From Octopus sinensis (lineage: Eukaryota), in assembly GCF_006345805.1 (NCBI RefSeq), contig NC_043005.1, positions 19,282,001-19,346,000 on the forward strand: DNA of 64,000 nt, given 5' to 3'. The notes beneath the pieces were generated by a model. The model saw nothing but the letters and a program-made list of their open reading frames with translations, had not been told where the DNA came from and did no database searches. The position numbers and the translations under genes are program-made. This document shows, piece after piece, positions 43,256 to 43,300 of the stretch. Within the stretch, counting starts at the first letter, position 1. Every line of letters starts with the position of its first letter.

Positions 43256-43300
43256 CACACGTACCCGAGTTTCAAGGTGTTTACCTTTCATCAGCGTGTG
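43256..43300 (-). ncRNA. Canonical minimal type I hammerhead ribozyme
   Basis: CACACG-CTGATGA-AAGGT-AAAC-ACCTT-GAAAC-TCGG-GTA-CGTGTG: perfect stem I (6 bp) and stem II (5 bp), full core, GUA cleavage site. Confidence 0.8.

Follow-up and report, generated by a model that had tools for sequence, protein, structure and literature searches.

The hammerhead motif on the minus strand of the window (the whole 64,000-nucleotide stretch of octopus DNA considered here) very probably belongs to a solitary, 5'-truncated copy of a retrozyme that a Penelope-type enzyme likely inserted at a (TA)n tract, within a family whose members are predicted to cut efficiently only as double hammerheads and which a LINE enters at one exact site; the lone copy itself would likely be a weak or inert passenger. 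What sets the family apart is the rule by which the ends of its insertions are paired, the covariation of a palindrome in the ribozyme, and the resident site-specific LINE. The locus in the window is ordinary. Its features are these:

43256-43300, minus strand: type I hammerhead core with octamer-bearing helix III (found by descriptor; 87 exact copies in the genome)
43249-43309, minus strand: hammerhead with distal helix I and UGU/U internal loop (folding, and conservation in 22 diverse copies)
43210-43344, minus strand: long imperfect rod closing the hammerhead (z -6.25 against 200 shuffles)
43046-43349, minus strand: 5'-truncated retrozyme monomer, q1-q304 of the unit (alignment to the 352-nt unit)
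43301-43320, minus strand: empty LINE target, q30-q49 (duplicated around LINE insertions in other copies)
42985-43047, strand not given: (TA)n tract at the 3' end of the element (the usual landing sequence of the family)

Read on the minus strand from 43300 to 43256, the 45 nt form a type I hammerhead with helix I open: a helix I of 6 bp, CUGAUGA, a helix II of 5 bp with an AAAC loop, GAAA, a helix III of 2 bp with a UCGG loop, and a GUA triplet. The elements that define the type are all present (C3UGANGA9, G12AAA, UH17, three helices, open helix I). The first-pass annotation had described the sequence, core, stems, and triplet just so, and letter by letter they agree; the cleavable A is indeed at plus-strand position 43262, with the predicted cut 3' of it, as that annotation had placed it. 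It erred, however, in taking the 45 nt for the whole ribozyme, since an extended helix I and an internal loop belong to it too. Beyond its 6 bp, helix I is prolonged past the UGU/U internal loop by a rod that covers roughly 43344 to 43210. The UGU of this loop and two A's of loop 2 are invariant in all 22 of the diverse copies compared, and the internal loop is a candidate for loop 1 of a putative tertiary contact between loop 1 and loop 2. A descriptor search of both strands finds this single hammerhead-shaped site in the window, while 200 dinucleotide shuffles of the whole window give no site by the strict descriptor and four in total by the loose one. Rfam, at gathering thresholds, gave no match in the window.

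The motif is part of a repeat. When 43048-43522 is used as a query, matches in the genome (2.72 Gb) are limited to its last 302 bases; there are 3,138 first-look candidates, and the 40 of these that were scored are 92-98% identical over 302 nt. Tandem loci give the complete unit, 352 nt in length (period 352-353 nt). Positions within it are given on a ruler, q1-q352, corresponding to L013:1501-1852 (L plus a number labels an individual sampled locus in the same genome), on which the hammerhead occupies q50-q94. The exact 45-mer is present in 87 copies and a degenerate form of the family core in 1,330, and the reversed control of each is absent. Arrays of five (L202) and seven (L203) units exist, every unit bearing a hammerhead. 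Among 133 distinct insertions, a sample biased toward close relatives of the window copy with intact cores, one hammerhead is found in 95, two in 22, more in 4, and none in 12. The first-pass annotation had named loss of the core among paralogues as evidence against its proposal; the paralogues preserve the core.

The window copy covers q1-q304, the last ~48 nt of the unit being absent. It meets unrelated DNA at 43350 and (TA)n at 43047, ends at the distal one of the family's two fixed 3' ends, and matches L002 at 99% of 300 aligned bases. Elsewhere in the window, repeat finders gave only microsatellites and unrelated repeats, and the unit does not occur a second time. The window copy is a lone truncated monomer, an ordinary dead-end copy.

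In its testable attributes, the repeat agrees with the non-LTR retrozymes of animals: it has tandem units, within their size range of about 170-400 nt, and each unit bears a type I hammerhead. The unit is non-coding and devoid of LTR features, the sampled copies have no shared ORF upstream of their units, and the GC fraction of 0.43 falls below the 45% that bounds retrozymes. The likeness to the animal elements described in the accessible parts of PMC7229834 and 10.64898/2026.07.22.740005 (those of Mytilus, at 350-390 bp, Rtz331 and Rtz353 of axolotl, and those of Acropora) extends over the non-coding unit of 352 nt, the 43% GC, the single type I hammerhead per unit, and the range from monomers to multimers. 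As in those elements, some subfamilies have a mismatch at the base of helix II. The octopus copies differ in being mostly dispersed monomers and dimers, in having readable ends of the Penelope type, and in harboring a site-specific LINE, and they are known here from sequence alone. Contigs from four runs that we guess to be RNA cover the family, two of them bridging the cut site and three the junction between units; they come without strand, ends, or level and were given no weight here.

The first-pass annotation considered the window motif the best candidate for an active ribozyme. Folding speaks against this. Nearest-neighbor folding, which omits Mg2+ and tertiary contacts and penalizes every 2-bp helix III (probability ~0 in 21 of 22 copies), predicts that the window copy on its own pairs CUGA of the core with the UCGG loop, at a probability of 0.93-0.97 across five contexts of 45 to 701 nt, leaving the catalytic fold 5.6 kcal/mol above the lowest. 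For two window copies, the lowest-energy fold is exactly the double hammerhead, at -43.1 against 2 x -19.8 (-39.6) kcal/mol. The short helix III noted in the earlier reading does point to dimer cleavage. That reading also put helix III one change away from a palindromic CCGG, but the dimer needs no change, as the octamer of the window copy pairs with itself along its whole length, two of the pairs being G.U (-8.9 kcal/mol for the duplex).

The family bears this out. Of 161 copies, 149 have a self-complementary octamer at helix III and 12 do not, where random expectation is 36 of 256 loops; 98 of the 161 have the window's own variant. Of the self-complementary octamers, 99 contain G.U pairs, while the other 50 amount to seven different Watson-Crick palindromes. 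In the 22 diverse copies, 91.4% of cells are paired, a two-sided change is seen in four pairs, the helix III pairs never vary, and the first pair of helix II is broken in 16. That the octamer varies between subfamilies yet remains palindromic is comparative evidence for the double hammerhead as the selected form, and we infer that the family has been selected for dimer cleavage. The 5' ends of plain copies showed no clustering at q89, the cut site, in a sample where most loci were chosen for an intact core.

Precedent points in more than one direction. According to the available part of PMC7229834, mussel and coral monomers with a short helix III cut well, which, together with the bias of the folding against a 2-bp helix III, means that the monomer could be active. 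The same source reports that axolotl retrozymes with such helices reach 6-22% cutting as monomers and do far better as dimers; among them HHR_Amex2, which like the octopus ribozyme has a 2-bp helix III and a tetraloop, cuts better as a dimer. Of the retrozyme dimers predicted in Xenopus, 8 of 9 failed to cut in vitro (10.64898/2026.07.22.740005, in the part available). Given the predicted fold that blocks the core in the monomer, the predicted fold of the dimer, and the seven palindromes, the solitary copy in the window is probably weak or inert as a ribozyme. The tandem arrays L202 and L203 are better candidates for activity.

How the repeat moves may be read from the ends of its copies. These 3' ends are fixed, at q259-261 or q304-311, some 45 nt apart (a tail of ~43-46 nt), and a TA or ATT tract follows 139 of the 164 in the family. 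Many insertions (58 of 133) are head-to-head, and in these the two ends obey a strict rule: all 40 that can be classified have one outer end near q260 and one near q305, and none has two alike (in the 18 set aside, at least one end coincides with a LINE junction or a point where the alignment breaks off). Since single-ended copies are divided 27 to 40 between the two classes, independent choice would yield a mixed pair only about half the time.

All the marks of an insertion mobilized by Penelope are present: two 3' ends with a tail, an inverted 5'-truncated arm, and an AT-rich target. The Penelope protein of Anolis nicks and extends both strands of AT-rich DNA, and two start sites on its RNA delimit a tail of 30-40 nt (PMC11167929, accessible part). 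Penelope-like elements (PLEs) are described in the available portion of PMC8557442 as forming partial tandems and bearing a tail at one end, with truncated arms in inverted orientation. The close match to two reverse transcriptase start sites and a tail makes a Penelope-type enzyme the likely mobilizer. The same two sources allow a fuller comparison with PLEs, Poseidon of Anolis among them. Shared are the two adjacent 3' ends with a tail, the AT-rich targets, the hammerhead within the repeat, and the partial tandem and inverted 5'-truncated arms. The octopus repeat departs from PLEs in that it lacks an ORF, has a tail of ~43-46 nt, and pairs its head-to-head ends strictly one of each; moreover, its hammerhead has a full distal helix I where PLEs have a minimal form.

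The mobilizing enzyme is inferred solely from these insertion marks because no autonomous Penelope element that shares the repeat turned up among the 30 GIY-YIG loci and 20 wider stretches examined from a pool of 5,029 candidates. Nor, in the sampled copies, was an ORF with RT and GIY-YIG joined to the repeat. PLEs do lie nearby at L137, L205, L207, and L213, either separated from the repeat or with other 3' ends. At L137 the repeat faces a PLE ORF head-to-head, but the 3' end of that PLE is a different one, with a hammerhead of its own, and is shared with L141; at L205 a decayed PLE lies 1 kb away with a TA tract between. Both were rejected as partners because they are chance neighbors in TA tracts.

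One might still suppose an autonomous Penelope-like element, yet to be found, of which the repeat would be the pseudo-LTR and the window copy an ordinary 5'-truncated end. The insertion marks are all of the Penelope-like kind, the genome holds thousands of GIY-YIG candidates along with intact RT-endonuclease ORFs, and a 2026 preprint derives retrozymes from pseudo-LTRs (10.64898/2026.07.22.740005, as far as its available text goes). We nonetheless regard this as improbable. What lies upstream of the units in sampled copies is another unit, an inverted arm, the LINE, or unrelated DNA, and never a shared PLE ORF; arrays purely of units exist, five and seven units long; and the PLE families examined (L131-L134, L137/L141) have 3' regions of their own, different from the repeat. 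On present evidence, the repeat behaves like a non-autonomous derivative of Penelope and not like an autonomous PLE.

A family of young PLEs at L131-L134, L138, and L139 has copies ~99% identical with two ORFs, one of 479 aa without Pfam match that overlaps the other, an intact RT-GIY-YIG ORF of 781 aa. These elements end in TA tracts and have a long 3' region with a degenerate hammerhead-like motif. The 781-aa RT-GIY-YIG family (L131-L134) is a candidate for mobilizing the repeat in trans.

According to the mechanism we propose, tandem arrays of a non-autonomous retrozyme would be transcribed, neighboring units would exchange strands through helix III and then cut, and the products would be RNA of unit length, which is circular in described retrozymes. 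A Penelope-type RT-endonuclease would then begin at two points on the unit RNA and copy it into the two strands of a TA target. The strict one-of-each rule for the ends predicts priming on both target strands from different sites on the RNA. The enzyme that moves animal retrozymes has only been proposed in print, and the octopus insertions carry the signature of two start sites that Penelope shows in vitro.

Several copies of the repeat start at q30, directly after a common foreign sequence, which is the 3' end of a LINE. At full length this LINE measures 5,329 nt (L196:3117-8445). By Pfam its ORF1 has a zinc knuckle and its ORF2 has APE, RT, and zf-RVT domains; the best solved relative of the LINE protein in PDB is human LINE-1 ORF2p (E 7e-66), the nearest named relative among the matches listed is from Argonauta, and the 120 matches listed include no named Tx1 protein. 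The element is of L1/Tx1 type, its membership in the Tx1 clade itself being judged from architecture only.

The place of insertion is nearly constant. Of exact matches to the LINE 3' end, 17 out of 18 abut q30; the best 30 DNA matches to its 3' UTR consist of 18 that abut q30, one off-target, and 11 of a sister lineage located elsewhere; and 27 of the best 30 matches to its 5' end follow the repeat at q47-49, counts that slightly overstate independent insertions, as some LINE loci are segmental duplicates (L222/L223, L225/L227/L228, L271/L272). The target is the 20 bases directly before helix I of the hammerhead, in several subfamilies, and young full-length LINEs have an apparent 20-nt target duplication, q30-q49, on both sides. 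The same target in the window copy (43320-43301) is empty. The older record agrees: in 20 wider stretches, mostly with older LINE copies, the 3' end is present in 16, and 15 of these run into an older repeat subfamily at the homologous place. These 15 share ~14 nt with the left side, each in its own subfamily variant (the automatic duplication finder scored 5 of the 16 old-lineage loci, and the 14-nt stretch in the others was read by eye). At L294, another insertion lies at the 3' junction.

Perhaps the LINE is not site-specific at all, its copies deriving from one or a few insertions that the retrozyme later carried along, while recombination shuffled the flanks. Passenger copying does occur, for at L186, L187, L194, and L199 the 3' parts of LINEs are joined to q30-q261 with no target upstream. 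Several full-length LINEs lie within complete head-to-head insertions whose two ends belong to different classes, left flanks are longer at LINE loci than at plain copies, and at L193 the flanks are of mixed subfamilies. Against this stands the fact that LINEs that are almost identical occupy subfamilies of the repeat differing by 12-35%, and each is bracketed by the form of the duplicated target peculiar to its subfamily: LINEs 94-98% alike are found in subfamilies A, B, and C, the left flank matching the right in each, and of 118 LINE pairs at least 94% alike, 63 have flanks no more than 88% alike. Furthermore, a truncated LINE at L192 has the target ahead of it and is followed by the target again and by a further LINE, inserted in tandem at that site; another truncated LINE, at L094, also has the target side upstream (q1-24); and the off-target copy at L184 has a 13-nt duplication resembling the target of older subfamilies, as if a look-alike had been struck. 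Spread as a passenger alone is on these grounds an unlikely account, even though RNAs of LINE plus retrozyme would also be re-copied as a unit.

The site-specific reading is the one we prefer, and by it the LINE endonuclease presumably aims at the q30-q49 site. Target-specific LINEs are those with the same flank in more than 20% of copies, in the terms of the accessible part of PMC4494074; the present LINE exceeds that proportion, with a duplication of 14-20 nt. The same part of that paper describes LINEs of the Tx1 clade that target other transposons (Tx1L in Tx1D, Tx1-Mar in Mariner-N4_AMi) and one, Keno, that targets U2, and in a figure it shows unnamed "satellites" among Tx1 targets. With the target-specific Tx1 LINEs the octopus element shares an endonuclease of APE type, two ORFs, a single position within another repeat, a target duplication, and tandem insertions that sandwich the duplication. 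It is unlike them in that its target is a hammerhead retroelement and its site lies directly before a ribozyme that stays intact downstream. In the literature outside subscription papers and Repbase, we found neither a LINE that targets a retrozyme or hammerhead repeat nor octopus hammerheads. A LINE aimed just before a hammerhead thus occupies a landing site for which we found no description, and it would offer a sequence-specific APE endonuclease with a defined 20-base target.

Some further observations concern the LINE and its relatives. Contigs of four runs, again guessed to be RNA, cover it without strand, ends, or level; the contig matches listed include no junction of LINE and repeat in other organisms. 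At L200 (the same locus as L114), internal LINE fragments are inverted relative to a retrozyme arm that starts at q29, possibly through an inversion made during the copying of a LINE-retrozyme RNA. The sister lineage lies repeatedly in a different, clustered repeat, with an apparent target duplication of its own (L239, L243-L248, L250, L251, L277, and L283; C28 at ~4.36-5.50 Mb and C2 at ~195.34-195.38 Mb).

Does the LINE make use of the hammerhead that it adjoins? It is possible, though on balance we doubt it, that the LINE is co-transcribed with the array and excised by retrozyme hammerheads as an RNA of ~5.7 kb, with target sequence at both ends to guide precise re-insertion. The same RNA would also serve as a Penelope template, and the LINE would need no RNA-processing signals of its own. 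Both the ribozyme and its distal helix stay whole 20 nt downstream of the inserted LINE, whose junctions are uniform and tail-less. A parallel is R2, whose RNA, by the available part of PMC3774820, can keep upstream target sequence at its 5' end, the 5' junctions then being uniform. R2, too, is a site-specific LINE with uniform junctions, and it is co-transcribed with its target. However, R2 encodes its own HDV-like ribozyme, has a restriction-like endonuclease, and resides in 28S rDNA, whereas here the ribozyme would be borrowed.

The flanks of the LINE bear on this. Left flanks reach back to q152 of the previous unit or further at 12 of 14 LINE loci, two of which are duplicates among the 14; for plain copies the figure is 11 of 106 (Fisher p 1e-8). 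In 10 of the 14 they start at q107-q144, which is 18-55 nt downstream of the previous unit's cut, and two pass the cut site. These starts fit an RNA with its 5' end at the hammerhead cut, but they would also fit stalling at the base of the rod near q140 or a promoter located there. One clear case, L193, has a patch of subfamily B (the donor type) just 5' of the LINE in a locus otherwise of type A; the patch could alternatively be the result of conversion. Apart from L193, left-right differences in the duplicated target, considered as a sign of flanks carried by RNA, were discarded, as they fall within the load of mutations expected from age. If the LINE does use the ribozyme, it would parallel R2 with a borrowed catalyst, and a three-tier chain of parasites (Penelope enzyme, retrozyme, LINE) would turn around one borrowed ribozyme.

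There is little of the host near the motif. A Pfam search of 150 of the 227 non-repeat ORFs in the window gave no host exon, only transposon pieces and sub-threshold matches. The 60 kb on either side (150 of 497 ORFs) gave, besides such pieces and matches, one host exon: the first coding exon of a rhodopsin-family GPCR, with a GT donor end (L263:2828-3175, minus strand), ~100 kb downstream of the hammerhead and on the same strand. The first-pass annotation had raised the possibility of a cut in a host intron or lncRNA, and a solitary hammerhead active as a monomer, with a regulatory effect on such a transcript, might appeal to the intact core and extended helix I of the window copy and to the long 5' intron that the GPCR exon makes conceivable, but the idea is unsupported and very unlikely, for the motif is part of a young and dispersed mobile repeat, the window ORFs that were searched contain no host exon, and the monomer fold is predicted to be blocked.

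Six or more further families of hammerheads occur in the flanks of the sampled copies, and in several of them helix III is minimal or has a palindromic loop (L137:1236 on the minus strand, L141, L035/L148, L060, L092, L116, L008/L020/L071, L034/L144, L149/L167, and L124). In the window itself, 35198-37086 is a large inverted repeat with 500-nt arms (35198-35697 and 36587-37086) that are 97% alike; by the descriptor it contains CTGATGA motifs without a complete hammerhead. A broken mariner transposase, Mos1-like, lies at 55276-56344 on the minus strand, a 256-nt tandem duplication (95%) occupies 45972-46520, and nine copies of a 39-nt minisatellite, with an open frame on the minus strand, fill 48747-49098.
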